Assembly: GCA_004284765.1 (NCBI GenBank)
Contig: NQJD01000004.1
Coordinates: 60,001 to 92,000, forward strand
Reading direction: 5' to 3'
Source of the DNA: Candidatus Electronema aureum
GTDB lineage: Bacteria; Desulfobacterota; Desulfobulbia; Desulfobulbales; Desulfobulbaceae
DNA length: 32,000 bases
Shown: positions 4,202 to 25,237 of the stretch, in pieces
Layout: each line of letters opens with the position of its first letter
How positions within the stretch are numbered: the first letter of the stretch is position 1
Position numbers and translations under genes: made by a program
Notes under the pieces: generated by a model
The model's database searches: none
The model's input: the letters and a program-made list of their open reading frames with translations, nothing else
What the model was told of the DNA's origin: nothing

Positions 4202-4543
4202 TTATACCAATGGTGATGACACTTTGTTAAGCACTGGGAGATGCCCATGAAACATCTCGAATTGGTGCATCCATGTTCTCTCGATCTTTTCAAGAAGACA
4301 TTCTTCAGCTAACAAATAATTAAAGAAAGAAGGCCTGCCGTAAACTCCGCTTTCTGTTTTCTGTTTACTTTCAAGATGCTGGCAAAATCTATTTTTCAGA
4401 CACCTTGAAAGACCAATATACAATATTTCACCAGAGAAGTTCGTTATCGTATAACATCCAGAATTTTCTGGAATTTCAAATGATACTGAATAGGAAAAAA
4501 GCTTTTTTCTGTCAGGGTATGGCATCAACTGATTGTGCATCAT
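4202..4543 (-). CDS. small GIY-YIG domain nuclease
   Basis: 113 aa. GCYTI...GEILYIGLSRCLKNRFCQHL gives the GIY/YIG elements plus the conserved Arg. It is followed by LEKIERTW (Glu) and VLNK (Asn). The ATG overlaps the upstream DGQHR stop as ATGA. About 30% GC. Confidence 0.7.
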   Translation of the reverse strand: MMHNQLMPYPDRKKLFSYSVSFEIPENSGCYTITNFSGEILYIGLSRCLKNRFCQHLESKQKTESGVYGRPSFFNYLLAEECLLEKIERTWMHQFEMFHGHLPVLNKVSSPLV

Positions 4544-5673
4544 AATTCAATGTTTTTATTTAGACTTGATTTATGCATCGAGCTAGCCATTAACGCTGCA
4601 ATTTTATGCAATGCTCCAGAATTAAGATAACTTGCTTTCCCTTTACCGCCGCTATTCCACCACTCAGAATGACCTAACCCTGCATAATCTCCATCAAGAT
4701 TTTCAAAAGTATCTCTCAGGAGACTCTCCATTGTTGGCACTTTGAAATCGTTCATTTCATGCAACTTAGAAAAGAAAGGAACGGAGAATCGACAAAATAG
4801 CTGGATGCCATTATATTTAAACAATACTGTTGGCTCGTTAACATATAGTATGTTGGATATTGCCTTCCAATAATTAAGAAATATTTTCAAACTTTTCTCG
4901 ATCGGATAAATAGTTAGCGGATTATTGGCGACTAGAACAAACTGTTTTATCGTTCTTGCGAAACTCTTTTGATTGACACTTGCGCTTTTACTTTCTTTGT
5001 TAGCCATTTCGATTCTATCTCTCCAAGGAGAATCATCCTCCGAGTTAAGATAATCAATAAACTTTAAGGCGATATCATCTTCTCCTTTCTTCACAGCTCT
5101 TTCAATCCACTTCGGCAATGACGGGATATGTTCTACTTGCAATGCTTTTGTTAAACGCGCATAAATTCGCTGCTCAATAGCTTTGTCCACGCTCTTTTGA
5201 GTGGTATTGACGATCAAGAAATGACACATCTGCGATATTCTTGACAATCCAGTTGCTATATTTACAGGTATTTCAAAATCTAACACCTTTATTTCTTTTT
5301 GACTGGCCATTTTCAGACCTTCAATTCTATGCTGGCCATCAACTACAGAAAAAGGTCCGATAAAATTTATATCGAAAGAAATAGTGTTTGTTTTTATGTT
5401 AAAATCAATATCCTTGTCAGTTGCTATAAAAATACTTGTCGGAAGAAAAACATCTTGAGTTTTCATCCCTTCTATAATGTAGTCTGCAAGTTTCTTTGCA
5501 CGTGCCTTATTCAAGAGACGTTGATACCCCTGATCGCTATTATCATCTGGATCTAACGTTTCAACGCTGTAAAAATTAGGCTTTAGTAAATCTGAAACCT
5601 TTAACGAGGTAGTATATAACGTTAAATTTCCCTGTTTAACGACCGCAGCTGGCCTTGAAATCTTATTCTCCAT
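4540..5673 (-). CDS. DGQHR domain protein (DndB-like, ParB/Srx-fold)
   Basis: 377 aa. Literal VVDGQHRIEGL motif, preceded by QGYQRLLNKARAKKLADYI and followed by FLIVNTTQKSV, as in the DGQHR/DndB family. GGAG lies 8 nt upstream of the ATG. Hand-counted lines are 30-32% GC. Confidence 0.8.
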   Translation of the reverse strand: MENKISRPAAVVKQGNLTLYTTSLKVSDLLKPNFYSVETLDPDDNSDQGYQRLLNKARAKKLADYIIEGMKTQDVFLPTSIFIATDKDIDFNIKTNTISFDINFIGPFSVVDGQHRIEGLKMASQKEIKVLDFEIPVNIATGLSRISQMCHFLIVNTTQKSVDKAIEQRIYARLTKALQVEHIPSLPKWIERAVKKGEDDIALKFIDYLNSEDDSPWRDRIEMANKESKSASVNQKSFARTIKQFVLVANNPLTIYPIEKSLKIFLNYWKAISNILYVNEPTVLFKYNGIQLFCRFSVPFFSKLHEMNDFKVPTMESLLRDTFENLDGDYAGLGHSEWWNSGGKGKASYLNSGALHKIAALMASSMHKSSLNKNIEL

Positions 5674-11939: not shown

Positions 11940-13583
11940 TCAACGGAAAACCGGCACAGAGGGGAAGAGAGAGGGATCGGTGTGCGGGATGAAGCGTGAG
12001 CCGGAAAAGCGGATCATGAATTCCTGATTCACGTTCAGCTCAAGATAAGTGATTTTGCGGCAGATATCTTGCGCTCGCTCCCAAAGCGTGTGATCAAGCA
12101 GAAGCTGCTCGGCACCAGCCAGCGAGGTATTGCCAACGGGATTAAAAACCGTCAGCGGTAAATCCGGCAGCATTCCCAGCGTGATGGCTTGGCGCGGGTT
12201 GATGTGCTCGCCAAAAGCCCCGGCCACGTGAATCTGCTCCAGTTCGCTGAAAGCAATGCCAACTTGGGCGCACAGGGTTTCCAAGATGGCATACATGGCA
12301 GCTTTGGAGCGCATCATCGCATCTAAATCGGTCTGGCTAACGCTCACACCCTCGACCAGGAGAAAGGTTGTCTCATTGCCGCACTGCACTAAGCGTTCTT
12401 GGACAAACTGCCGCTGCGCCTCGCTCTGACCGACAAACTCTGCCTGAAACTTGCCGCGCAGGTCAATGATCCGGGCAAGATATAATTCTGCCGCTAAGTC
12501 AATCAGGCCGGAACCACAAATACCAAGCGGCGGGGCATCCGCAATGCTGCGCCACGTCAGCCGCCAGCTCACGCGGTCAATGCTGACCTGCTCAATTGCG
12601 CTCGGTGCGGCCCGCATTCCCATCCGTGCCACCCCGCCTTCCAAAGCCGGACCAGCCGCACCAGCGCAGGCGATCAACCAATCCTTACCACCCAGCACCA
12701 CCTCGGCGTTGGTGCCTACGTCGATGAGCATGGCAGGCTGTTCCGCTTGATCAAGACCAACTGCCAGAATACCAGAAATCAAATCACCGCCAAAATAGCT
12801 GCCCCGGCTGGGCAAAAGCCATGTCATCGCCTGCGGATGCAGCCGCAAGCCAATCTCCGTTGCCAAAAAGGGATCAGGTGCATTGACTAGGGGAATATAC
12901 GGCTCACGGCAAAGGTAATACGGACTAAGGCCGAGCAGCAGGTGCGCCATCGTGGTGTTGCCTGCGGCGGTCAGTGTGCGAATTTCCTCCGGCAGGACGG
13001 CAGCCTCTTGGCAGAACTGGGCAATCAGCCCGTTGATTGAATCGACCGCCGCCTGCTGAAGCTGGCGCAGCCCCTCCTCTTTGGCAGCACAATGAATGCG
13101 CGTGAGGATATCAGCTCCGTATTCCACCTGCTGATTGAGGGCGGTGTTACGGGCAAGAACCTTGCCAGTGAGCAGGTCAATCAAGCTGGCCTCAAGGTGA
13201 GTTGAGCCTAAGTCCAAGGCCAAGCCCGGCAGCAGTTTCGGTTCCTCCGGCAGAAAGTCGATCAGCTCAAGCTGGCCGGGCAAGCAATGAACAACTGCCC
13301 AACCGTGAAAGCCAGCAGCCCGAAATGCTGCGGCAACTGTGGTTATGCAGGCAAAGGGAACCCGCAGCGGCCTGCCTGCCAATTCAGACGGTAGAGCAGC
13401 GGCTAACGTCGCCTTCAAGCGGTCAAGATCAGCGGTGTTGTCAGCCAGACTCGGCGGCACAGCAACCAGCGGCAGGGCCACGGTCAAAGGAATTGTTGCA
13501 ACCATAGAACACACAAAGATGGACGGCTTTTCCGGGTAATGCTTGACTGAACCGCCCGCAGAGGGTAAGAAATATTGCTGCAA
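11940..13583 (-). CDS. ASKHA-fold ATPase, DUF4445 family (RACo-like C-terminal module)
   Basis: LALDLGSTHLEASLIDL, IDVGTNAEVVLG, GAAGPALEGG and GICGSGLID are actin/HSP70-like phosphate and adenosine motifs. The start may instead be the MVATIPL Met at 13505. Confidence 0.72.
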   Translation of the reverse strand: MQQYFLPSAGGSVKHYPEKPSIFVCSMVATIPLTVALPLVAVPPSLADNTADLDRLKATLAAALPSELAGRPLRVPFACITTVAAAFRAAGFHGWAVVHCLPGQLELIDFLPEEPKLLPGLALDLGSTHLEASLIDLLTGKVLARNTALNQQVEYGADILTRIHCAAKEEGLRQLQQAAVDSINGLIAQFCQEAAVLPEEIRTLTAAGNTTMAHLLLGLSPYYLCREPYIPLVNAPDPFLATEIGLRLHPQAMTWLLPSRGSYFGGDLISGILAVGLDQAEQPAMLIDVGTNAEVVLGGKDWLIACAGAAGPALEGGVARMGMRAAPSAIEQVSIDRVSWRLTWRSIADAPPLGICGSGLIDLAAELYLARIIDLRGKFQAEFVGQSEAQRQFVQERLVQCGNETTFLLVEGVSVSQTDLDAMMRSKAAMYAILETLCAQVGIAFSELEQIHVAGAFGEHINPRQAITLGMLPDLPLTVFNPVGNTSLAGAEQLLLDHTLWERAQDICRKITYLELNVNQEFMIRFSGSRFIPHTDPSLFPSVPVFR

Positions 13584-13637
13584 TATCGTAGGAGCGAAAA
13601 ATCTTTCACCCCTACAATCTCCTTGCTACTTTTTACA

Positions 13638-14723
13638 ATGAACCTCCTCAACCGCTATATCCTCAAGCAGTTCGGCAAGAATCTCCTCATGCTGGCTTTG
13701 AGCTTCATCGCCTTGTATATTCTGATCGATTTCTTTGAAAAGATCGACAATTTCATGGAAAAAGGCAAGCCGATGGTGCTGGTGGGAAAATTCTTCCTCC
13801 TCTCCATTCCGTTTGTAGTCGAACAGATGGGGCCAGTCTGCATTCTGTTAGCGGGTGTTGTCACGCTTGGCGTACTTAACAATTCCAATGAGCTGACCGC
13901 GCTCAAGGCAGGCGGCATCTCCCTCAAGCAAATCACTGGCCCGATCATCGCTGCTGGGCTGGCCGCAACGCTGCTGCTCTTAGCTTTGTCGCAGTTTGTC
14001 CTGCCAAGGACAGCTGCGATTACCAACCGAATCTGGCACCGCGAGGTCAAAGGCCAGATGCCGCTCGGCATCTATCGGAGTGGACGCTATTACTATCAGG
14101 GGGAAGACAATTTCTACTCCTTTGCTCGGCCTGATCATGCCAAAACGAAGTTTTTTTTCTTTTCCCATGCTGCTTGGAATAAGCAGTACCAGCTACAAAC
14201 TTTAGTGGCAGCAGAGCAGGCCGTGTGGCAGAACGACAAGTGGCTGCTTTACAACGGCCAAGTGCAGATTGCTCAAGGTGATGGACAGTTCAAAACTGAG
14301 ATATTCAAATGGCGCAGTTTCCCTTTCAAGGAAAAACCAGCAGATTTTTTTATCCCTCGGCTACGGAGCAGCGAGCTATCTATCTTAGAGCTGTACCGAG
14401 ATGCGCTACGCCGCAAGCAGAGCAAAGAGGAAAAGTCCGCCGCCTGGGCGGAGTTCTACGGGCGGGTCTCATACATTCTGCTGGGCCTGCCCTTGCTCCT
14501 GCTGGGCCTGCCGTTTATTCTGCTGGTCTATCGGAAATGGGGCCGCGACCTCTCCCTTGCTGTGCCGGTGAGCTGCGGCATGGCCTTCGCCTGCTGGGGC
14601 ATCTGGGCAATCTTGCAGTCCTTGGCCAAGGCCGCGTATTTCGATCCGCTGGCAGCGGCCTTGTCGGTGCATCTGACCGTGGGTGCACTAGGACTATTTC
14701 TACTGCTGCGGGAGGATACGTAA
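13638..14723 (+). CDS. LptF/LptG family LPS-export permease
   Basis: MNLLNRYILKQFGKNLLMLALSFIALYILIDFFEKIDNF is a typical YjgP/YjgQ N-terminus. It has a periplasmic middle domain and C-terminal TM helices. I place the start at the MNLLNRY Met rather than the tracked 13575. Confidence 0.85.
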   Translation: MNLLNRYILKQFGKNLLMLALSFIALYILIDFFEKIDNFMEKGKPMVLVGKFFLLSIPFVVEQMGPVCILLAGVVTLGVLNNSNELTALKAGGISLKQITGPIIAAGLAATLLLLALSQFVLPRTAAITNRIWHREVKGQMPLGIYRSGRYYYQGEDNFYSFARPDHAKTKFFFFSHAAWNKQYQLQTLVAAEQAVWQNDKWLLYNGQVQIAQGDGQFKTEIFKWRSFPFKEKPADFFIPRLRSSELSILELYRDALRRKQSKEEKSAAWAEFYGRVSYILLGLPLLLLGLPFILLVYRKWGRDLSLAVPVSCGMAFACWGIWAILQSLAKAAYFDPLAAALSVHLTVGALGLFLLLREDT

Positions 14724-14727
14724 CACA

Positions 14728-17352
14728 ATGAACAGCAATGAACTGACCATCAGTAAACCGGTTTCCGTCTGGAACAAGAGCATCAGCCTTGAGCCAAAGA
14801 AGTTCCTGCAAGGCATTGGCAAGGCGGCGATAAAAGGCGCATCGCTTGACTGGAGCGGCGTTGGAGAAGCCGCCTTAGACACCATTGATGCTGCTGGCCT
14901 GCGCGATAAGCCAAATGAGCTTGCCTATTTGCTCATTTTTCGCTCGCTGGCCACTGCTCTTTCTGAGCTGGCGAAAGACTACGTTGACCTTTTCCGCAAT
15001 CCTCCGAAAGAGGAAGAGCTGGACAAGATTTCCGCCCGCTTTGCAGAGGAAATGGGCAAGGCGGAAGTATCCATCAGCCGCGAGTTCTTTGACCGGCCCG
15101 GCGAGCTGCCTTTGCTGAAGAATTTGCAAGGCCCGCTGGCCGCTTGGCTGCATGGCGTGGGTGCCAAGCAAACGGATGCGGAACAGATCGCCTGCCGCTT
15201 GCCGGATTATTTTGTCACCGCCCTGCATGAGACATGGCGGGCCGCGCCGCTGGACTACGCCGCCTTAACTCAGCATTTTGACACGCCGTTCACCAAGGCC
15301 ACGGAAGAAGCCCGGAGCTGGCGGCTCTATAATCAATGGCTGCAACGCCAAGTCAGCGACCGGATGTTTGCCGAAGCCTTTGGTGTGGAAAAGGTTTATG
15401 TGCCGCTGCGGGCGTATTACGAGGAAAAGGAGCGGGACGACGAGAGCAGCCAAGAGCTTGCGCCGCAGCGGGACAAAGTGAAACAGATTGTGGTGGATAT
15501 GGAGAGCGAGTTCCGCAACTGGCTGGACAACTTCGCTGCTGGCTCGGCAGTGCGCTTCATCAGCGGCGGGCCGGGTTCGGGAAAGTCCACCTTTGCCAAG
15601 ATATTCGCCGCCAAGATTGCCGCAGAAACCGACATCCCCTGCCTGTACATTCCCCTGCATCTCTTTGATGCCACGGACAACTTGATCACAGCAATGGAGA
15701 GCCATATCAGGAGCAACCGTTTCCTGTCCGGCAATCCGCTCGCTGCCAGAGACGGCAAAGACCGTCTGCTGATCATCTTTGACGGCTTGGACGAACTGGC
15801 TCTGCAAGGCAAGGCGGCCTCCGAAACAGCGAACAACTTTGTGGACGAAGTGCTGCGCCGCATTCAGGACGGCAACAGCCAAGGTCTGCACCGACAAGTC
15901 ATTATCACCGGGCGGACGATTGCCATTCAATCGGTGGCGGCAAAGCTGCGCGATGCCAAGCAGATCAGCCACGTGCTGCCGTATTTCATTGCGGAAGAGG
16001 AGCGCGAGGAATACCACGACCCAGACGGCCTGCTGATTGAAGATCAGCGGCAGCGATGGTGGCAGCAGTACGGCGACGCTGCGGGCAAAGGCTATGCGGG
16101 CCTGCCTGCGGACTTGGCGCGGCAGCATCTGGTTGAGATCACGGCCCAGCCGCTGCTCAATTACTTGGTTGCTCTCAGCTATGACCGCAAGACCATCACG
16201 TTCAGCGACGAGACCACGCTGAATCAAATCTATGCCGACCTTATCCGGGCGGTTTATTGCCGTCAGTATGAAAATGGTGGCCGGGTAAGTGCTTGTGCGG
16301 GCGGGCTGGATGAGAAAGACTTCATCCGGGTTTTGGAGGAAATCGCCTTAGCGGTTTGGCATGGGGACGGACGCACCGCCACGGTTGCCGGGATTCGGGA
16401 AAAACTCAAGGCGGGCGGCATTGAACGCTATTTGGAGCAGTTCCAAGAAGGGGCAAAAGCGGGCGTGACTCGTCTGCTCACCGCCTTTTACTTCCGGCAA
16501 AGCGATAACCGCCAAGACGGCGACCCGACCTTTGAATTCACCCATAAGAGCTTTGGCGAATACCTGACTGCCCTGCGCATTGTCCGCCTGTTGCGGCAGA
16601 TGGAGAAGCAGCGCAAGCGGCGGCAGGAAGACCCGGACGACGGCTGGTCGGAAAAGGTAGCCTTGCAGAAGTGGACTGCGTTTTGCGCCGTCAGGTGGAT
16701 GGATGATGACCTGCTGCGCTTTATCAGCAATGAGTTCCTCGCCATGATGCAAGAGGAGCTGCTCGCCTTGCAGGGCATGGTGCGGGAACTGCTCAGTTAC
16801 ACCATCAACCAGGGCCTGCCTTTTCCTGATGAGTTTTTGGGCAAAGGCTTCAAGGAGCATCTCCGTTTAGCCGAGAATACGGAAGGGGCATTGCTGGCCG
16901 TGCATTTTCACATTGCGGAGCTGACTAAAGAGGTCTCAAGGCTGACGCTGGAGGATGAATGGACCTTCGAGGAATGGTTCAGGCGAGCAAACGGGATGAG
17001 TCGGTATGCAGACAGGCTAGGGTACTTAGATTTATCCGACTATAATCTTTCAGGGCAGCTTTTTTATGATGCAAATTTTGTCATGTCTCGTCTTGAAGGC
17101 ACAGACTTGTTTTGTTCAATTCTTGCATGCGCAAACTTGCAAGGCGTGCAGCTTGAAAATGCGATTCTTTGTCGAGCCAATTTGCAAGATGCCAACCTTG
17201 CAGGAGCGAATCTCAAGGACGCAGACCTTAGTTATGCGAATTTGCGAAACGCAAACCTTGAAGGGGCGAATTTGGAGGGAGCGAATTTGGAGGGAGCGGA
17301 TTTAGAAGGTGCCATTCTCACAGGCACCATTTTGGAGAAGAAGGAGGCGTAA
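14728..17352 (+). CDS. STAND/NACHT-type P-loop NTPase with a C-terminal pentapeptide-repeat array
   Basis: 874 aa. Walker A GGPGSGKST (nt 15565-15591) and Walker B LLIIFDGLDE (nt 15766-15795). About 270 aa of helical N-terminal region, and a helical middle region after the NTPase core. The C-terminus (nt about 17043-17340) is A(N/D)LxG pentapeptides, ANLQDANLAGANLKDADLSYANLRNANLEGANLEGANLEGADLEGAIL. GGGAGGA lies 11 nt upstream of the ATG, inside the lptF/G 3' end. Confidence 0.85.
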   Translation: MNSNELTISKPVSVWNKSISLEPKKFLQGIGKAAIKGASLDWSGVGEAALDTIDAAGLRDKPNELAYLLIFRSLATALSELAKDYVDLFRNPPKEEELDKISARFAEEMGKAEVSISREFFDRPGELPLLKNLQGPLAAWLHGVGAKQTDAEQIACRLPDYFVTALHETWRAAPLDYAALTQHFDTPFTKATEEARSWRLYNQWLQRQVSDRMFAEAFGVEKVYVPLRAYYEEKERDDESSQELAPQRDKVKQIVVDMESEFRNWLDNFAAGSAVRFISGGPGSGKSTFAKIFAAKIAAETDIPCLYIPLHLFDATDNLITAMESHIRSNRFLSGNPLAARDGKDRLLIIFDGLDELALQGKAASETANNFVDEVLRRIQDGNSQGLHRQVIITGRTIAIQSVAAKLRDAKQISHVLPYFIAEEEREEYHDPDGLLIEDQRQRWWQQYGDAAGKGYAGLPADLARQHLVEITAQPLLNYLVALSYDRKTITFSDETTLNQIYADLIRAVYCRQYENGGRVSACAGGLDEKDFIRVLEEIALAVWHGDGRTATVAGIREKLKAGGIERYLEQFQEGAKAGVTRLLTAFYFRQSDNRQDGDPTFEFTHKSFGEYLTALRIVRLLRQMEKQRKRRQEDPDDGWSEKVALQKWTAFCAVRWMDDDLLRFISNEFLAMMQEELLALQGMVRELLSYTINQGLPFPDEFLGKGFKEHLRLAENTEGALLAVHFHIAELTKEVSRLTLEDEWTFEEWFRRANGMSRYADRLGYLDLSDYNLSGQLFYDANFVMSRLEGTDLFCSILACANLQGVQLENAILCRANLQDANLAGANLKDADLSYANLRNANLEGANLEGANLEGADLEGAILTGTILEKKEA
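17263..17307 (+). repeat. three tandem near-identical 15-nt units inside the pentapeptide coding region
   Basis: ggggcgaatttggag, ggagcgaatttggag and ggagcggatttagaa, encoding GANLE, GANLE and GADLE. Confidence 0.9.
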
Positions 17353-17372
17353 GGGCCCGTCCGCTTTGTCAC

Positions 17373-19535
17373 TTACGGTTCCACCATTACCACTTCTCTT
17401 GGCCTTGAACCGTCGGACGGCCCGATGATGCCATCTCGCTCCATCATCTCAATCATCCGGGCCGCGCGATTGTACCCCACCCGCAGCTTGCGCTGAAGCA
17501 TGGAGATTGAGGCTTGGCGGGTCTCCTTAACCACAGTCACGGCCTGATCATAGAACTCGTCATAATCATCCTCGCCGTCTGCCGCTTCCTCTTCAGTAAT
17601 CTTGAGAACCGACTCGTCGTAGTCAGCTCCGCCCTGTGCTTTCAGAAAATTGATAATTCGCTCAGTTTCTTCTTCGGAGATGTACGCCCCGTGAATGCGC
17701 TGGAGTTTGGCTGCGCCTGGCGGTAGAAAGAGCATGTCGCCCGCGCCAAGCAGATGTTCAGCCCCGGAGCTGTCGAGGATGGTGCGGGAATCGACCTTTG
17801 AGGAAACTTTGAAGGAAATTCGAGTAGGAAAGTTGGCCTTGATCAGGCCGGTGAGAACATCCACTGAAGGCCGCTGTGTTGCTAAGATGATGTGCATTCC
17901 AGCGGCCCGTGCCATCTGCGCCAAGCGGGCAATCGAAGTCTCCACGTCCTTGGAAGCCACCATCATTAAGTCGGCTAATTCATCGACAATGATGACGATA
18001 TAAGGCAGCTTTTCCTCAGCGGTCTCGTTGTAAGAGGTGATGGATTTAACCCGCGCCTCCTCCAGCAGCTTGTAGCGTCGCTCCATTTCTCGCACCGCCC
18101 AAAGTAAGGCGCGGCTGGCCATCTTTGGTTCAACCACCACCGGATGGAGCAAATGAGGAATGCCCTCATACGTCGAAAGCTCGATCCGCTTAGGATCGAT
18201 CAGGAGCAGGCGCACTAAGTCCGGCGTAGCTTTGTACAAAATGGAGCAGATGAAAGCATTAATCGCCACCGACTTGCCCGCGCCCGTGGCTCCGGCGATA
18301 AGCAGATGCGGCATCTTGGCTAAGTTGGCCACAGCGGGTTGACCAACGACATCAACACCGAGGGCAATAGTCAGAAAAGAAGCTGAATTTTGGTACGCGC
18401 TACCGAGCAAAATGTCGCGGAGAAAAACCGTCTTGCGCTGAGGATTAGGTATCTCAATGCCAATGGCCGCTTTGCCGGGAATTGAACCGACCACCCGTAC
18501 CCGATCCACCTTCAGCACCATCGCTATATCATCAGCCAAGTTGACGATCTTGTTGATCTTGATACCCGCTGCTGGGGCAAATTCGTAGGTTGTTACCACC
18601 GGCCCCGGCGAAACTCCAACTACTTCTCCTTCAACCGCAAAGTCGAGCAGCTTGGCCAGCAAGATTTTGCTGACTTCATCATAATGCTGCCGGTCGATTT
18701 CAATGTCTTCTTGGTTATTTTCCTCCAGCAAAGAAATCGGCGGCAACTGGAAGTCCCGTTTGATGATTGGCTTCTTTTTAGGCAGAGTCTCGGCCTTATC
18801 GGATGTTGCGGTTGATTCCGACTCGCGGATAAAAGGCAGCTTTTGGACAATAACCGACAGGCTCGACAAAATCTTCATCGCTTCTTCAGCCTGCGGCGGA
18901 GGCAGTAGAGCTTTGCGCTGCTCTCGCTCGGCCTGCCAATCAGCCAGTTTTTCCTGTGCAACCAAGGCTCCTTCTGCTGTTGTTTTCACTGCCGCCGTTG
19001 TCTGTTCCCACGTCCAAGCGGCAAAGGCGAGGGGTGAAAAACGGATGGCTGCCATCAGCGAAAAGAGCAAAAGCAACAAGAGAAGCAGCACCGAACCAAC
19101 CGTACCCAACACACCTTCCAGCAGTCCCCAGATCAGGTGGCCGAGAAAGCCACCTATCAGGATGGAATTTATTGAAAAAACCAGCTGCTCTGCCCAAGCC
19201 AGCAACCCCGATGCAGCCAGCAAAACACCGGTCAGTCCGGCAACGATGAAAGGTAGGCGATCAAAAACGGCGCGGGCAGTGAGGACAGCAATGGCAAGAT
19301 AGAAGAGCAGCAGCGGTGGAAAAAACGAAATCAGCCCAAAAAAGGAAAGCAGATAACGAGCCGTGTAATTGCCGAAGTGACCACACCAGTTTTCCGCCGG
19401 AAGCTGGGGTAATGGTTGCTGGCCGAGCAGAGGCAGGCTGTAACTGATCAAACTGAGCAGCAGCACTGCGCCGAGAAAGAGACAGGTGACTGCCGCCGCC
19501 TCCTGATGAAGGGCTGCTTGGTTGCGCGGAGGCAT
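17373..19535 (-). CDS. ftsK: DNA translocase FtsK/SpoIIIE
   Basis: N-terminal TM helices, Walker A GATGAGKSV, Walker B IVIIVDELADLMM, and the gamma winged-helix SISMLQRKLRVGYNRAARMIEMME. Confidence 0.95.
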   Translation of the reverse strand: MPPRNQAALHQEAAAVTCLFLGAVLLLSLISYSLPLLGQQPLPQLPAENWCGHFGNYTARYLLSFFGLISFFPPLLLFYLAIAVLTARAVFDRLPFIVAGLTGVLLAASGLLAWAEQLVFSINSILIGGFLGHLIWGLLEGVLGTVGSVLLLLLLLLFSLMAAIRFSPLAFAAWTWEQTTAAVKTTAEGALVAQEKLADWQAEREQRKALLPPPQAEEAMKILSSLSVIVQKLPFIRESESTATSDKAETLPKKKPIIKRDFQLPPISLLEENNQEDIEIDRQHYDEVSKILLAKLLDFAVEGEVVGVSPGPVVTTYEFAPAAGIKINKIVNLADDIAMVLKVDRVRVVGSIPGKAAIGIEIPNPQRKTVFLRDILLGSAYQNSASFLTIALGVDVVGQPAVANLAKMPHLLIAGATGAGKSVAINAFICSILYKATPDLVRLLLIDPKRIELSTYEGIPHLLHPVVVEPKMASRALLWAVREMERRYKLLEEARVKSITSYNETAEEKLPYIVIIVDELADLMMVASKDVETSIARLAQMARAAGMHIILATQRPSVDVLTGLIKANFPTRISFKVSSKVDSRTILDSSGAEHLLGAGDMLFLPPGAAKLQRIHGAYISEEETERIINFLKAQGGADYDESVLKITEEEAADGEDDYDEFYDQAVTVVKETRQASISMLQRKLRVGYNRAARMIEMMERDGIIGPSDGSRPREVVMVEP

Positions 19536-20457: not shown

Positions 20458-20787
20458 TTAAAAAGAAAAAAAATCCTGCAAACAGGCGATCATCTTGATC
20501 TGAGTTCCTTTTGAGATTGCGCCCATTTTTTTCATGAGCCTCGATTTGTCAACAGAACGCATCTGATCAAGCAGAATCAGCCCAGTCTTATTCTGAAATA
20601 TGCATGGAATTCTGGTTGGAAAGCTGAAACCTTTGGAGGTCATCGGCGCAATGATCGCGGTGTTCAAGGCGGACATTTCGTCTGGAGAAATGACAACACA
20701 AGGTCTGGTCTTGTTGATTTCAGAACCTTGTGTTGGGTCGAGCTGCACCAGCCAGATTTCAAAACGATGGACTTCCAGCCTCACCAT
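20458..20787 (-). CDS. mazF: type II toxin, MazF/PemK family endoribonuclease
   Basis: FEIWLVQLDPTQGSEINKTRPCVVISPDEM is a PemK-fold signature. The ATG at 20787 overlaps the antitoxin stop by 7 nt. Confidence 0.85.
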   Translation of the reverse strand: MVRLEVHRFEIWLVQLDPTQGSEINKTRPCVVISPDEMSALNTAIIAPMTSKGFSFPTRIPCIFQNKTGLILLDQMRSVDKSRLMKKMGAISKGTQIKMIACLQDFFSF

Positions 20788-21035
20788 TCCCAATCCTCAT
20801 CAGTGGTCAGCGGCGCATCAAGCCATTCCTGATCTGTAGCGCTTGCCTCCTGACATCGAAGGGCTTGGTCAAACTGCTCTTTCCAGCCCTGCCGGGGCTT
20901 TCTGACTGGCTGAATCAGCAGGCCGTCATCAACCACTTTAAATTGCAGCTCGCTGTGTTGCAGGTGCGCCTGCTCGATGATTGCTTTTGGAATCCGCACA
21001 CCGTGTGAATTCCCAATTCTGATCAATGTGGCCAT
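20781..21035 (-). CDS. mazE: type II antitoxin, MazE-like AbrB/SpoVT domain
   Basis: 84 aa. IRIGNSHGVRIPKAIIEQA is a swapped-hairpin AbrB motif, with an acidic C-terminal tail (TTDEDWEW). GGAGGAA lies upstream of the ATG. Confidence 0.8.
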   Translation of the reverse strand: MATLIRIGNSHGVRIPKAIIEQAHLQHSELQFKVVDDGLLIQPVRKPRQGWKEQFDQALRCQEASATDQEWLDAPLTTDEDWEW

Positions 21036-21099: not shown

Positions 21100-22344
21100 T
21101 CATGGCTCCCCAACCACCGGCCCTTGCGGCTCGTCGCCATACAGCTCCAGCAGGTGGCCCATCTTATCGCGCTTGCAGCGGAGGTACTCCCGTGTCTCGC
21201 ACTCACAGACCATCTCTATCGGCAGGCGGGCGACCGCCTCCAAACCGTATCCTTCCAGCCCGATGAGTTTCTTCGGGTTGTTGGTCAGCAGGCGCATTTT
21301 GCGCACGCCGAGATCGCGGAGAATCTGCGCCCCGATGCCGTAATCGCGCAGATCGGGCTTGAAGCCGAGATGAATGTTGGCCTCGACCGTGTCCAAGCCT
21401 TCCTCGTCTTGCAGCTGATAGGCCCGCAGCTTGTTGACCAACCCAATGCCCCGGCCTTCCTGCCGCATGTAGAGGATCACACCCTTGCCTTCCTGATCTA
21501 CCATTTTCATGGCCGCTTGCAGCTGCGAGCCGCAGTCGCAGCGCGAGGAGCCGAACACGTCGCCGGTCAGGCACTCGGAATGCACCCGCACCATCACCGG
21601 CTCGTCCGGGCTGATTTCACCCTTGACCAAGGCGATGTGCTCGAAATCATCCACTTCGTTTTTGTAGGCAATGATCTTGAATTCCCCAGCATGGGAGGTG
21701 GGCAGCCGCGCCTCCGCCACCCGATGCACCAGCACGTCCTCGCGCAGACGATAGGCGACCAGATCGGCGACTGTGGCAATCTTCAGGCCGTGTTTTTCGG
21801 CGAAAATCTCCAAATCCGGCATCCGGGCCATTGTGCCGTCATCCTTCATGATCTCGCAGATAACACCGGCTGTCCGCAGCCCGGCAAGGCGGGCCAAATC
21901 AACCGAGCCTTCGGTCTGGCCGGTGCGCACCAGCACCCCGCCCTTACGCGCCCGCAGCGGGAAGATATGGCCGGGGCTGATGATGTCGCGGGGCGTGGCA
22001 TCCGGGTCGGCGGCGGCCTGAATGGTGCGGGCGCGGTCAGCGGCGGAGATGCCTGTTGTCACGCCGGTACGGGCCTCAATGCTGATGGTGAAGCCGGTGC
22101 CATAGGGCGACTGGTTGTTCTGCACCATCATCGGCAGACCGAGCTGGTCAATGATGTCAGGACTCAGGGTCAGGCAAATCAGGCCGCGCCCGTGGGTGGC
22201 CATGAAATTGATAGCCTCCGGAGTGACCGCCGTTGCGGCCATACAGAGGTCGCCCTCGTTCTCCCGGTCTTCATCATCCACGAGGATGATCATTTTCCCG
22301 GCCCCGATGTCTTGTATCGCCTCTTCAATGGAACAGACCGCCAT
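21100..22344 (-). CDS. ribBA: bifunctional 3,4-dihydroxy-2-butanone-4-phosphate synthase / GTP cyclohydrolase II
   Basis: DDEDRENEGDL (DHBP synthase) and VRVHSECLTGDVFGSSRCDCG (GCH II zinc site). Confidence 0.95.
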   Translation of the reverse strand: MAVCSIEEAIQDIGAGKMIILVDDEDRENEGDLCMAATAVTPEAINFMATHGRGLICLTLSPDIIDQLGLPMMVQNNQSPYGTGFTISIEARTGVTTGISAADRARTIQAAADPDATPRDIISPGHIFPLRARKGGVLVRTGQTEGSVDLARLAGLRTAGVICEIMKDDGTMARMPDLEIFAEKHGLKIATVADLVAYRLREDVLVHRVAEARLPTSHAGEFKIIAYKNEVDDFEHIALVKGEISPDEPVMVRVHSECLTGDVFGSSRCDCGSQLQAAMKMVDQEGKGVILYMRQEGRGIGLVNKLRAYQLQDEEGLDTVEANIHLGFKPDLRDYGIGAQILRDLGVRKMRLLTNNPKKLIGLEGYGLEAVARLPIEMVCECETREYLRCKRDKMGHLLELYGDEPQGPVVGEP

Positions 22345-22373
22345 GATGCGCTCCCGCTCGGAATCAGAATTTT

Positions 22374-23027
22374 TCAGCGCAGGAATCCGTGCTCGGCCAA
22401 AAAAGCCGGGTTGATTCTGCTTTCAGCTACTCCGGCATCCTTGGCCGCGAGCAGCTTTTCCACGTATTTGCCAATCAGGTCAACCTCCAGATTCACCTGG
22501 TCGCCCGCTTTCAGGCCGCCGAGCGTCGTCACCGCCAGCGTGTGCGGAATGATCGAGACTGAAAAGCGGCTGCCCGCGCAGGAGTTGACTGTCAGGCTGA
22601 CCCCGTCAATGGTGATTGACCCCTTCTCAATAACATATTTGGCCAGCTTTTGCTCAAGAGAAAAGGTGAAGAGCGTGAAATCTCCTGCGGCCCGGCGTTC
22701 CTCAACCCGGCCCTGGGTATCCACGTGGCCGCTGACGAGGTGGCCGCCGAGCCGGTCAGCCAAGCGCAGGGCGCGCTCCAGATTGACCTTGCTGCCGATT
22801 GCCAATCCGCCCAAGTTGGTGCGCGATAGGCTTTCCGGTGAGACATCGGCCAGAAAGTGGCGGCCCTGAATGTCGCGGGCGGTCAGGCAGACCCCGTTGA
22901 CCGCGATGGACTCGCCTTCCTGCGGCTCAGTCAGGTCAAAGCCCGCCTCAATGCGGAAGACCATACCACCGCCCACAGGCCGCTTTTCCAGCACTGCGCC
23001 CAAGCTTTGAATGATGCCGGTGAACAT
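22374..23027 (-). CDS. ribE: riboflavin synthase alpha chain
   Basis: MFTGIIQSLG..., an internal duplication, and GGHLVSGHVD. Confidence 0.95.
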   Translation of the reverse strand: MFTGIIQSLGAVLEKRPVGGGMVFRIEAGFDLTEPQEGESIAVNGVCLTARDIQGRHFLADVSPESLSRTNLGGLAIGSKVNLERALRLADRLGGHLVSGHVDTQGRVEERRAAGDFTLFTFSLEQKLAKYVIEKGSITIDGVSLTVNSCAGSRFSVSIIPHTLAVTTLGGLKAGDQVNLEVDLIGKYVEKLLAAKDAGVAESRINPAFLAEHGFLR

Positions 23028-23030
23028 CGC

Positions 23031-23630
23031 TTAAGCCCGCTCCAGCTCATCGGCGCGGGCGGCAAATTCCTCGGCCATGCGCTGGTGCTTGAAATTTCTG
23101 TGAATCGCGGCAATAGTGCGATAGGTTTCCGCCGCCTTGAGCTTGTCGCCCTTTTCTTGGTACAGCTCGGCGATCACCGTCATTGTCTCCACCATGCCCT
23201 TCGGGTCTTTGGTGAGCTGATAATGCTCAACCATGTCAAAGGCATACTCCAAGGCTTGGTCGAATTCGCCCAGTTTGCCGTGCGCCGCCGCCATCTTTTT
23301 GTTAAGAGCAAGGATGGAGAAGGAATCCTCCTCTTTCTCGCAGATGGCATAAGCGCGGCTATAATGCGCCAAGGCGGCGGCGTAGTCCTGCCGCTCCAAG
23401 CAGACATCGCCGAACCGGTCTGCGGCGTTGGCAACGCCCGCCTCGTCGCCTTGCTCCTCAAAGCCTTTCAGGGCGTTGTGAAAGGCCATTGCCGCCATTG
23501 CGTATTCGCCTTTTTTGAACTGCTCGCGGCCTTCGAGGTAATCGCGTTTGGCCGGGTCGTTTTCCGCTGCGACCGGTGCCGATTCTGTTGGGCAAAGGGA
23601 ACTTAGCGGCTGTGTGAAGGTGGATGACAT
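23031..23630 (-). CDS. TPR-repeat protein
   Basis: 199 aa of repeated A-x-x-Y/F helical hairpins (GEYAMAAMAFHNALK, QDYAAALAHYSRAY, GEFDQALEYAF). There is only a 3-nt gap to the ribE start. Confidence 0.7.
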   Translation of the reverse strand: MSSTFTQPLSSLCPTESAPVAAENDPAKRDYLEGREQFKKGEYAMAAMAFHNALKGFEEQGDEAGVANAADRFGDVCLERQDYAAALAHYSRAYAICEKEEDSFSILALNKKMAAAHGKLGEFDQALEYAFDMVEHYQLTKDPKGMVETMTVIAELYQEKGDKLKAAETYRTIAAIHRNFKHQRMAEEFAARADELERA

Positions 23631-23648: not shown

Positions 23649-24437
23649 TTATAGCTTGTTCAACGCCGCATCCAAGGTCGCTTTAATCCGCTTTTTCTCA
23701 ATTTCAGGATCAACCTTCTGGAGGTACTCCACCGCTGCCAAGTCATCGCCACGTCTTCTGTTTTGGCGTGGCTCCAGAGCTTCAATCAGAATAGCTTCCA
23801 AAGCTGGAATCATATTCACCGCTTGGTAAATCTCAGGCAATGCGTCAATCTGCCCGTCACCAGAAATCGGCAACAAGCCGAACCACGAAAAACGGTCCCA
23901 GCGCACCGCCAGCCGGTCTTTAGTGTGTTCATACAGCCGTTTTCCCAGAGGTCGTTCCGTGCTTCTGCCAACATAAATTACTTCCCTGCCGTCATACAGC
24001 AAATAAATGCCAAGCTGCTTGCAGAAATCAACCGGCGTGGCTCCGATTTGCTGTATTCCGAGCAGTTTTGGCGTTGCATTCCATTCCACAGCATTCCTCT
24101 GCCAAAACATACCAAATGATGTGATGATTGTTTCGCGCTGTTCTTCTACCTCTTCCTGTTTAATGGCATCAGGTGCAATGTCGTGTACGTCTGAGATTGA
24201 CACACCTTTTTGCAAGGTGAAAATTCCTTTGTCAATACGAATATATGGTGAATTATCTCCATCATGCTTGATAGATGCAGATATTTGCGCACCTACTGTA
24301 GCCAACGGAGTGGCTCCAAGATTCTTTCTTAAGCCATCAGCGACAATCCTCTCTGTTATTTCTTTGTAATGCAGAGGAGTTTCTGACATAGATAATACTT
24401 TTACAATCGCTTTTTGCCACGTTAATTCTGATGCCAT
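23649..24437 (-). CDS. HARE-HTH domain plus GIY-YIG nuclease domain protein
   Basis: The N-terminus LTWQKAIVKVLSMSETPLHYKEITERIV...ATVGAQISASIK resembles the HARE-HTH/RpoE-delta N-domain. The C-terminus has GIYLLYDGREVIYVGRSTERPLGKRLYEH, then EAILIEALEP and QNRRRG, which are GIY-YIG core residues. I place the start at the ATG of MASELTW. The tracked start at 24464 is a TTG. Confidence 0.7.
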   Translation of the reverse strand: MASELTWQKAIVKVLSMSETPLHYKEITERIVADGLRKNLGATPLATVGAQISASIKHDGDNSPYIRIDKGIFTLQKGVSISDVHDIAPDAIKQEEVEEQRETIITSFGMFWQRNAVEWNATPKLLGIQQIGATPVDFCKQLGIYLLYDGREVIYVGRSTERPLGKRLYEHTKDRLAVRWDRFSWFGLLPISGDGQIDALPEIYQAVNMIPALEAILIEALEPRQNRRRGDDLAAVEYLQKVDPEIEKKRIKATLDAALNKL

Positions 24438-24956
24438 GACTTGCTCTTTAGTGTGATTTGTCAATTTGAAACTTGCCTTTGCCGCAGCTCAACCGTTCCA
24501 ACAAGTCTCCTTACTTACAACAACGGTTTGAGGTTGAAAAAAGTTCGGGCAGACATTCACTTTTTTTATTTTTTCTTTCCGAGAACACCTCATTGATAAT
24601 GAGGTGACCATTTTTTACTATTTTACCGCATAACTCTGCATCTCCACCACTGCCTCTGTCACCAAAGTCTCTACTGTTGGCCGCGCTTATACACGGTGTG
24701 TATTTTTCTGCAAGGCTATAACCTGAGAGCTGAATATGCAAGCAATTATTCATAGCATAGTTCTCTTGATTCCAACGTTAAGACCACAAGCTGAGTTACG
24801 TAGTTCAAAGTACAAAATGAACAATTCAACATACTCTTTTGGTGTATATATTCGAAAAAAACTGGAAAGGCTGTACTGGCTTGCCCGCTGTGATACGGCT
24901 GTAACACCTGAAGAACGGGTTAGCCGTAAATAGATAATGAATTTACTTGAGGTAGT

Positions 24957-25034
24957 TGGTCGGGGCGGCAGGATTCGAACCTGCGACCTCCTGCTCCCAA
25001 GGCAGGCGCGCTAACCAGGCTGCGCTACGCCCCG
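24957..25034 (-). tRNA. tRNA-Pro (anticodon TGG)
   Basis: Hand-folded. Acceptor CGGGGCG/CGCCCCG, anticodon stem CCTGC/GCAGG with loop CTTGGGA, T-arm GCAGG-TTCGAAT-CCTGC, encoded CCA. Confidence 0.95.
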
Positions 25035-25098
25035 ACGAAAGCTGCCCACACAGCATAACGTTTTTTTGAACCAAACGCAACCTTTTTTATTTTTCTGC

Positions 25099-25127
25099 TT
25101 GACTCTTTTTCGCCGTCATGATAAATA
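25099..25127 (+). promoter_or_regulatory. putative promoter for tRNA-Asn
   Basis: TTGACT (25099-25104), a 17-nt spacer, then TAAATA (25122-25127), about 35 nt upstream of the tRNA 5' end. Confidence 0.45.
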
Positions 25128-25161
25128 TCCTCAGCAACACTGCTGCACAAGCAATGTCTAA

Positions 25162-25237
25162 TCCTCGGTAGCTCAGTCGGTAGAGCAGGTGACTGTTAAT
25201 CACCCTGTCGGCGGTTCGAGTCCGTCCCGGGGAGCCA
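25162..25237 (+). tRNA. tRNA-Asn (anticodon GTT)
   Basis: Acceptor TCCTCGG/CCGGGGA, D-arm GCTC-AGTCGGTA-GAGC, anticodon loop CTGTTAA, T-loop TTCGAGT, encoded CCA. Confidence 0.95.

Follow-up and report, generated by a model that had tools for sequence, protein, structure and literature searches.

The stretch of DNA analysed here (the window, 32,000 nucleotides from the cable bacterium Candidatus (Ca.) Electronema aureum, Desulfobulbaceae) carries a gene for a protein of 874 amino acids that combines an N-terminal helical domain (NNH3), a NACHT-type NTPase module and a C-terminal array of pentapeptide repeats (Table 1). The gene lies directly behind a gene for an LptG-like lipopolysaccharide-export permease and is followed by a convergent ftsK gene, where synteny breaks; both neighbours are considered to be outside the system. 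The permease is closer to LptG than to LptF (192 bits with TIGR04408 vs 90 bits with TIGR04407, both below the equivalog cut-offs), and its gene has an alternative ATG start at 13638, from which the homologues are annotated (361 aa). As a preliminary description of the locus had noted, only 4 nt (CACA) separate the lptG stop codon from the ATG of the NACHT gene, and the ribosome-binding site of the latter lies inside lptG. Between both genes a sigma70-like promoter on the + strand and a terminator were sought and neither was found, so that co-transcription in the genome of the window is plausible. The GC content at third codon positions (GC3) is 0.663 in the NACHT gene vs 0.666 in lptG, that is, the gene has a native composition. 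The open reading frame (ORF) is not a chance one, because a search with aa 1-750, with the tail left out, recovered 1749 homologous proteins at E<=1e-5, and the ratios of nonsynonymous to synonymous substitution rates (dN/dS) are between 0.23 and 0.47.

Table 1. Positions of the NACHT gene, its parts and its neighbours in the window, and of sites in other genomes used for comparison (L numbers designate the comparison loci; MAG, metagenome-assembled genome).
Feature	Position	Strand	Details and basis
lptG-like permease gene, upstream neighbour	13575..14723	+	PF03739, E=5e-64
Shine-Dalgarno-like GGGAGGA within the last lptG codons	14710..14716	+	About 12 nt before the ATG, read from the sequence
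Whole NNH3-NACHT-pentapeptide gene	14728..17352	+	874 aa, ATG start; ORF call and Pfam architecture
NNH3 domain, all-alpha bundle, presumed output or adaptor module	14791..15384	+	aa 22-219; PF22735, E=5.7e-40
Beta-hairpin and helix before the nucleotide-binding domain (NBD)	15409..15537	+	aa 228-270; secondary structure of models
NACHT nucleotide-binding domain	15538..15987	+	aa 271-420; PF05729, 30.2 bits (cut-off 26.7)
Walker A, GGPGSGKS	15565..15588	+	aa 280-287; motif scan
Walker B, LLIIFDGLDE, containing DGLDE	15766..15795	+	aa 347-356; motif scan
Helical domain, winged helix, second helical domain	15988..17007	+	aa 421-760; model secondary structure, Foldseek to NLRP3/NLRC4
Pentapeptide-repeat beta-helix, presumed sensor, about 21 units	17026..17340	+	aa 767-871; PF00805, 84.9 bits
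15-nt tandem repeat encoding ANLEG units	17258..17303	+	3.1 copies; Tandem Repeats Finder
ftsK, convergent neighbour	17373..19535	-	Pfam FtsK domains; stop 20 nt from the NACHT gene stop
Site between an RND adaptor gene and that of its pump, Ca. Contendobacter MAG	L018:4842-12171		
Site with the same RND pump downstream of the gene, second gammaproteobacterial MAG	L016:5983-12060		
Site between ndhF-like and ndhD-like genes, Nostoc sp. MS1	L024:4453-11962		
Palindrome	L009:8610-8631		
Palindrome	L015:8607-8628		
Palindrome	L012:2357-2378		
Palindrome	L011:5937-5958		
Palindrome	L010:8892-8913		
Palindrome	L001:11847-11868		
Palindrome	L019:7139-7160		

A Pfam scan of the protein identified NNH3 ("NACHT N-terminal Helical domain 3") at aa 22-219, NACHT at aa 277-409 and Pentapeptide in the tail, and an NPHP3_N match spans aa 259-325. 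The score of the NACHT match passes the gathering cut-off marginally, and the two motifs that define this group are present: the Walker A motif GxxxxGK[ST] appears as GGPGSGKS, and Walker B contains DGLDE (aa 352-356, within RLLIIFDGLDE, aa 346-356), which matches the signature D[GAS]hDE that Kibby et al. (bioRxiv 10.1101/2022.07.19.500537) and Koonin and Aravind give as specific to NACHT. In an alignment of 89 diverse relatives, residues G280, G285, K286, D352 and E356 are invariant, so the NTPase site is maintained. A further motif, TFEFTHKSFGEYL, at aa 601-613 of the helical and winged-helix region, is near-invariant across the homologues.

A full-length AlphaFold model built on 35 homologues (predicted local distance difference test, pLDDT, 83.5; predicted template-modelling score 0.79) shows helices at aa 12-217, an alpha/beta NTPase core, a helical and winged-helix region at aa 420-760 and a regular beta-solenoid at aa 767-866; an acidic loop before the NBD (aa 238-247) was modelled with low confidence. 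When this model was compared with known structures by Foldseek, the best matches in the PDB were human NLRP3 (7zgu, E=6e-10) and NLRC4 (4kxf, E=7e-10), and the next ones were the pentapeptide beta-helices Np275/276, HetL, MfpA and Qnr. The alignment with NLRP3 and NLRC4 extends over more than 700 columns (E about 1e-9 to 1e-10), and the predicted fold includes the whole extension from the NBD through a first helical domain (HD1) and a winged-helix domain (WHD) to a second helical domain (HD2). The layout proposed in the preliminary description (helical N-terminus, P-loop core with GGPGSGKST and LLIIFDGLDE, helical middle region and around 20 repeats) was thus recovered by Pfam and by the model, with about 21 repeats, and its likening of the protein to NLR-type STAND/NACHT sensors with C-terminal repeats agrees with the NACHT signature and with these fold matches.

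The preliminary description had also found no enzymatic motif in the N-terminal region. That part still holds, and the region itself turned out to be assignable, to NNH3. Modelled alone, this domain gave a confident all-alpha bundle (pLDDT around 90 over aa 60-200), for which Foldseek found no significant match, to effector folds or otherwise, in the PDB (best E 0.14) or in BFVD (best E 0.47), with TM-scores below 0.25. Death-like, TIR, nuclease and pore-forming assignments were considered and rejected, as evidence for them was lacking after both fold searches. The domain is preceded by a conserved KPVSVWN motif (aa 10-16), and its invariant residues are mainly aromatic or hydrophobic. Transmembrane or amphipathic membrane segments were sought and none was found, the highest Kyte-Doolittle mean over 19 aa being 1.17.

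The tail consists of tandem A(D/N)LXX units in register, with a strand every five residues of the model between aa 767 and 866, as in the right-handed quadrilateral beta-helices of Np275/276, HetL, MfpA, Qnr and AlbG. It matched PDB pentapeptide proteins with E=1e-8 to 1e-45 in sequence and fold searches and is 39-48% identical to Nostoc Np275/276 and HetL over around 110 aa; in a sequence-profile search of the PDB, the pentapeptide part of the protein was the only one matched. The tandem repeat encoding the ANLEG units probably lends itself to the gain and loss of repeats, and across the family the tail is 99-211 aa long, with around 20 to 42 repeats. Its resemblance to MfpA, Qnr and AlbG in sequence and fold would fit a nucleotide-regulated DNA mimic acting on gyrase or another DNA-binding enzyme, with a housekeeping or stress-protective role as in Qnr or in MfpA with its partner GTPase MfpB, and so would the acidic character of the tail in the window (net charge -10) and the presence of a GyrB/ParE-like gene upstream of the copy in Ca. 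Electronema sp. PJ. We consider such a role very unlikely, as the tail reaches none of the equivalog thresholds of Qnr, MfpA and HetL (27-28 bits vs Qnr and MfpA cut-offs of 240-450), its net charge per 100 aa lies anywhere between -12.5 and +6 across homologues, its length is variable and its outward residues diversify. Moreover, the gyrB-like neighbour is found in one genome only, and the central module is an NLR-type NACHT and not a small GTPase. In contrast to the stand-alone pentapeptide proteins, the helix encoded in the window forms the short C-terminal part of a NACHT protein, and its surface charge is not conserved.

The combination of NNH3, NACHT and Pentapeptide was found in nearly all of the best 120 homologues. 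Identities are 72-88% in cable bacteria (75-88% for full-length matches), 58% in Syntrophorhabdaceae and 44-50% in Nostoc, and further hosts include methanotrophs, Nitrosomonas, Desulfobacter, Shewanella baltica, Vibrio and many Nostoc. NNH3 alone matched 780 clusters (at 50% identity) among 1.84 billion representatives, where it nearly always forms the very N-terminus of proteins 860-1100 aa long, and among 51 diverse NNH3 proteins a NACHT match was present in 45 and pentapeptide repeats in 44. In Table S1 of Kibby et al. (10.1101/2022.07.19.500537) the architectures "NNH3+NACHT+Pentapeptide" and "NNH4+NACHT+Pentapeptide" constitute clade 9 of the bacterial NACHT proteins (bNACHTs), and all six NNH3 rows fall within this clade; the Supplementary Discussion of the same work counts pentapeptide repeats among the sensors of "antigen receptor type". 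The protein in the window is therefore a cable-bacterium member of a known, catalogued and widespread kind, and the idea that a pentapeptide sensor and this type of N-terminal domain were unusual had to be abandoned, NNH3 being a curated family and the architecture being listed verbatim.

By its N-terminal NNH3 and its C-terminal pentapeptide array, the protein would belong to the clade-9 bNACHTs, an assignment by domain architecture. It shares the three-part layout of NJO80537.1, WP_168505314.1 and WP_118166576.1 (NNH3 at about 1-248, NACHT at about 265-730, then the tail) and is 44-46% identical over its full length to Nostoc proteins of the same layout. No accession identical between the Nostoc homologues and the clade-9 entries was found via cluster membership. 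In contrast to the clade-9 rows of Table S1, it comes from a cable bacterium (Desulfobulbaceae), a lineage absent from that table. Some of these rows add EAD10 before NNH3, or REC or Ntox49 at the C-terminus (10.1101/2022.07.19.500537), and since such additions exist, NNH3 may be a constant adaptor-like module and not always the terminal effector; the protein of the window lacks EAD10, REC and Ntox49, and its tail is short.

The comparison can be extended to better known systems. With NLRC4 (4kxf) and NLRP3 (7zgu, 7pzc) the protein shares the NBD-HD1-WHD-HD2 module and the succession of output domain, NACHT and repeat sensor, but sequence identity is only 12-13%, a beta-helix takes the place of the horseshoe of leucine-rich repeats, and NNH3 that of the CARD or PYD death-fold domain. 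The Avs proteins, which Gao et al. reportedly described in 2022, are said to be STAND NTPases that carry an effector at the N-terminus and a repeat sensor at the C-terminus, and to oligomerise when the sensor binds conserved phage proteins. Avs NTPases lie outside the NACHT clade and are combined with TPR-like sensors and, as a rule, with enzymatic effectors, whereas the protein of the window has an NTPase of the NACHT clade and a pentapeptide sensor. Among the bNACHTs themselves, members of clades other than 9 provide phage defence that depends on Walker A (Kibby et al., 10.1101/2022.07.19.500537). Of these, bNACHT01 belongs to clade 14 and has a short SNaCT C-terminus (10.1101/2022.07.19.500537), and bNACHT25 senses the MS2 coat protein via DnaJ (PMC12169576). 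Both resemble the protein of the window in being single-gene systems with a central NACHT carrying Walker A and a fast-diversifying C-terminal sensor region, and differ from it in belonging to other clades, in lacking NNH3 and pentapeptide repeats, and in that their antiphage activity has been demonstrated, while here it is inferred.

The close coupling to lptG had been taken as a hint of an envelope-linked role, in which the protein would monitor or regulate LptFG or outer-membrane biogenesis. The position of the gene was compared in around 11 cable-bacterium genomes of the genera Electronema and Electrothrix, and the adjacency was found in four of them, namely the window, Ca. E. nielsenii F5, Ca. 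Electronema sp. TJ and the MAG S01.Bin068, in which only the last 60 nt of lptG remain. Elsewhere the gene follows ddl with a 4-nt overlap (V4 and JC), a ubiE-like methyltransferase gene after a 6-nt gap (Electrothrix scaldis), pgi, with mfd 10 nt downstream (JM), a GyrB/ParE-like gene (PJ) or hcp (Ca. E. halotolerans), so that at least six chromosomal positions are occupied. The upstream gene in PJ (L013:3949-5802) encodes a type IIA topoisomerase B subunit of 617 aa.

A role coupled to the export of lipopolysaccharide is made extremely improbable by these positions. It would agree with the 4-nt gap, the ribosome-binding site inside lptG and the lack of a promoter or terminator between the genes, with the recurrence of the adjacency in Ca. 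E. nielsenii F5 and TJ, and with the membrane-related character of several other insertion contexts (ddl, RND efflux, ndhF/ndhD). Nevertheless, the adjacency is missing in V4, JC, JM, PJ, Ca. E. halotolerans, Electrothrix scaldis and all the distant relatives examined, Desulfobulbus propionicus and JM carry lptG without the gene next to it, in Ca. Electronema sp. VV the slot is occupied by an unrelated gene, and the protein has neither a transmembrane segment nor a signal sequence. The ancestral order also argues against it: in D. propionicus the translation of lptG is coupled to that of two conserved ORFs, orf250 and orf225, and this lptG-orf250-orf225 arrangement is the ancestral one. The NACHT gene separates lptG from orf250/orf225 in TJ and S01.Bin068. 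The tight junction in the window is thus best read, from the comparison of these sequences, as an insertion into the lptG-orf250 junction that reflects no functional partnership, where the NACHT gene probably draws on lptG transcription.

In VV the gene that holds the slot, between lptG and orf254 (L020:7111-8286), encodes a Schlafen/AlbA_2 protein (PF04326). Because it fills the place held by the NACHT gene in TJ and S01.Bin068, the region 3' of lptG acts like a minor hotspot in which variable genes, probably of defence type, come to lie. In JM there is no gene in the slot, only around 20-35 nt similar to the 5' end of the NACHT gene, followed by a GC-rich palindrome; the sequence after lptG (L019:7088-7160) contains a 40-aa ORF starting with MTGNEL that aligns with this 5' end (ATGA..GCAACGAACTG). 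To judge from this alignment, a NACHT gene was apparently deleted here and left the remnant as its footprint. The intact copy of JM, between pgi and mfd, lacks the MNSNEL start.

Outside the cable bacteria the gene occupies the RND and ndhF/ndhD sites of Table 1, follows a NERD gene in Shewanella and a transposase remnant in Methylomonas, and lies amid TIR, ParE and PIN genes in Syntrophorhabdaceae. At the RND and ndhF/ndhD sites it is oriented like the host genes, and together with the lptG/orf250, ddl and ubiE sites of cable bacteria this suggests that it habitually inserts in line within housekeeping operons. Being in line with operons could also be expected of a STAND signal-transduction regulator of the MalT/AfsR type, controlling neighbour genes on a metabolite cue, and the first bacterial STAND NTPases to be characterised were indeed NTP-dependent transcription regulators. 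This explanation is hardly credible here, as no DNA-binding output domain was detected in Pfam or NCBIfam scans, no conserved neighbour could serve as a regulatory target, and the NACHT signature and the NLR fold place the protein in the NACHT clade and not with MalT/AfsR.

Nucleotide homology between differently placed copies runs from around the start codon to 4 nt past the stop, and in the window the homology to other cable-bacterium loci ends at 17356. A site-specific mobile element was considered as the vehicle and rejected, as in the window neither direct nor inverted repeats border the gene, no integrase adjoins it, and the breakpoints vary by genome (60 nt upstream in S01.Bin068, around 16 nt within the coding sequence in JM). 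Rearrangement or recombination is more likely than a dedicated transposition mechanism. Perfect GC-rich palindromes of the form GGGGCG(N4-14)CGCCCC (chance expectation 0.05 per 32 kb) were found once per cable-bacterium locus and not in the window. They lie mostly within around 300 nt of the border of a NACHT gene or of the JM footprint, and 1.2 kb downstream in L001, and a 30-nt element is 100% identical in three species despite a divergence of 15-20% in the DNA around it. These features are suggestive of a repeat similar to repetitive extragenic palindromes (REP) or miniature inverted-repeat transposable elements (MITE) that is tied to the cassette borders.

The selection acting on the gene was analysed per domain in nine cable-bacterium orthologues. 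All the domains are under purifying selection, with dN/dS values of 0.29 for NNH3, 0.23 for the NBD, 0.23 for HD/WHD, 0.25 for HD2 and 0.47, the highest, for the beta-helix. Within the repeats, the inward A and L positions showed dN values of 0.11 and 0.08, and the outward positions values of 0.44 and 0.52, in agreement with the outward face of the beta-helix changing fastest.

The divergence of the NACHT alleles did not follow that of their hosts. Between the window and TJ the flanking genes (DHH, RACo, LptG) have synonymous divergences (dS) of 1.1-1.2, and the NACHT gene one of 0.47, with 76% amino acid identity. By contrast, at the ddl locus shared by V4 and JC the flanks are 91-98% identical (dS 0.19-0.54) and the NACHT proteins 77% (dS 0.47), and between S01.Bin068 and TJ the respective values are 90-92% and 75%. 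Thus, the divergence is flat, at 75-82% amino acid identity and a dS around 0.5, regardless of host relatedness. A codon-bias artefact as the source of the low dS was rejected, the GC3 being equal to that of lptG. Because the alleles are about equidistant whatever the distance between hosts, the data point to a pool of alleles swapped among cable bacteria, combined with fast protein evolution. These dynamics fit a conflict gene and not an accessory factor of the Lpt system. Disrupted copies were also observed. In Ca. E. nielsenii F5 (L007:1339-3931) a frameshift just before the tail leaves an 804-aa ORF and 71 aa in another frame, and elsewhere the gene is split into 215 and 717 aa in a Chromatiaceae MAG (L017:1088-3901) and into 451 and 416 aa in Nostoc (P0386/P0387). 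These cases correspond either to recurrent pseudogenisation or to sequencing errors in the repeats.

Exchange of this kind is reminiscent of the fungal HET-E and HET-D, NACHT-WD40 incompatibility proteins with a hypervariable repeat sensor and with pools of alleles in a multicellular organism, which differ from the protein of the window in clade (reportedly clade 18 of Kibby et al.) and in repeat type. An analogous switch for allorecognition or programmed cell death in the multicellular filament, or for the sacrifice of damaged or invaded cells without being specific for phages, would explain why the gene is present in all the sampled cable bacteria, of both genera, why filamentous or multicellular taxa (Nostoc, Anabaena, Symploca, Leucothrix) are frequent in the family, and why alleles are about equidistant, with high divergence even between the sister genomes V4 and JC at the same locus. 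Also in its favour, Kaur et al. (2020) linked such NTPase conflict systems with multicellular prokaryotes. We regard it as unlikely, if well short of negligible: the family is found as well in unicellular hosts (Vibrio, Shewanella, Methylomonas and Solidesulfovibrio), a "het-like" partner locus is not apparent, and diversifying sensors and allele exchange are equally expected of antiphage genes.

A bolder version, to which we give a slightly smaller chance still, is that in cable bacteria the gene has become a lineage-wide, always-retained "self/altered-self" switch for the filament and not an ordinary accessory phage defence. Its presence in all sampled genomes, its native composition, and its roughly equidistant alleles, which pass between species and insert anew in line with different housekeeping operons, fit this proposal. 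Two mechanisms are conceivable: the beta-helix could be an integrated DNA-mimic decoy that baits DNA-binding proteins of invaders, or, by analogy with fungal HET-type NLRs, the alleles could mediate allorecognition or the sacrifice of single cells. Under either mechanism, NNH3 would represent a death or adaptor fold of a new, non-enzymatic type.

The explanation that we favour, and consider probable, is that the gene encodes a stand-alone bNACHT sensor of conflict or infection, of the NNH3-NACHT-pentapeptide type of clade 9 of Kibby et al., presumably acting against phages. If it works like NLRC4, NLRP3, Avs and the tested bNACHTs, the beta-helix together with the helical and winged-helix domains would keep the NACHT module at rest in an ADP-bound, autoinhibited and monomeric state. 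A trigger, which may be a phage-derived protein or a perturbed host protein, would bind to the variable outer face of the beta-helix and allow nucleotide exchange and oligomerisation through NACHT, in such a manner that the N-terminal NNH3 domains are brought into clusters. The clustered NNH3 would most likely stop the growth of the infected cell or kill it without enzymatic activity, for instance by recruiting or sequestering a host factor or by forming a toxic assembly. The proposal builds on observations given above: the architecture, the intact and invariant NTPase site, the NLR-like fold, purifying selection combined with a fast-changing sensor surface, and the changes of position and exchange of alleles. 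The recurrence of disrupted copies and the context of some relatives, amid TIR, ParE, PIN or NERD genes or by transposase remnants, are supportive as well.

Several observations weigh against the sensor proposal. The gene has a fully native composition, its occurrence in every cable-bacterium genome sampled is unusual for an accessory defence gene, and in the window and most cable-bacterium loci the neighbours are housekeeping genes and not a defence island. A search of PADLOC-DB v2.0.0, including STAND and Avs-type models, gave no significant match (best mad8, E=0.014, and PDC-S05, E=0.03), and the plasmid and phage collections contained distant plasmid relatives only and no phage copies. In Table S1 of the preprint by Kibby et al., no clade-9 row bears the "bNACHT" label of tested proteins. 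Finally, NNH3 has no conserved catalytic-looking polar residues, no transmembrane segment and no structural homologue, so its effector chemistry cannot be named.

Other regions of the window also caught our attention. On the - strand, positions 4202-5673 form a low-GC islet (GC 0.36, GC3 0.33) within a cluster of sugar-nucleotide and polysaccharide genes, encoding a DndB-like protein (PF14072) and a protein with a GIY-YIG nuclease domain, and probably represent a foreign defence-type module. A MazE/MazF (PemK) toxin-antitoxin pair of lower GC3 (0.53) lies at 20458-21035 (- strand), wedged directly after ribH-nusB-ftsK. It is followed at 21124-23606 (+ strand) by two overlapping ORFs of 581 and 249 aa and high GC (0.59-0.61) with no Pfam match at E<=1e-4. 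A gene for a HARE-HTH protein (23649-25237, GC3 0.445) adjoins divergent tRNA-Pro(TGG) and tRNA-Asn(GTT) genes in a low-GC stretch, and this region may be a tRNA-associated islet; no ORF of at least 70 aa was picked between 24753 and 26063.

Part of the value of these results is as negative evidence, as the coupling to lptG is an accident of insertion and the seemingly unusual architecture is a published and curated type. Clade 9 is a large NLR-related family, none of whose members is labelled as tested in Table S1 of the preprint by Kibby et al. Its output domain, NNH3, is without a structural homologue, and a search of the literature on cable bacteria together with NACHT or pentapeptide proteins returned nothing relevant; likewise, we found no experimental characterisation of clade 9, of NNH3 or of the beta-helix sensor. 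To our knowledge, the pentapeptide beta-helix, often a DNA mimic, has no defined ligand as a sensor in any NLR. The cable-bacterium orthologues, with many alleles, several insertion sites and empty sites, constitute a natural data set in which the movement and diversification of such a gene can be followed in an uncultured multicellular bacterium.

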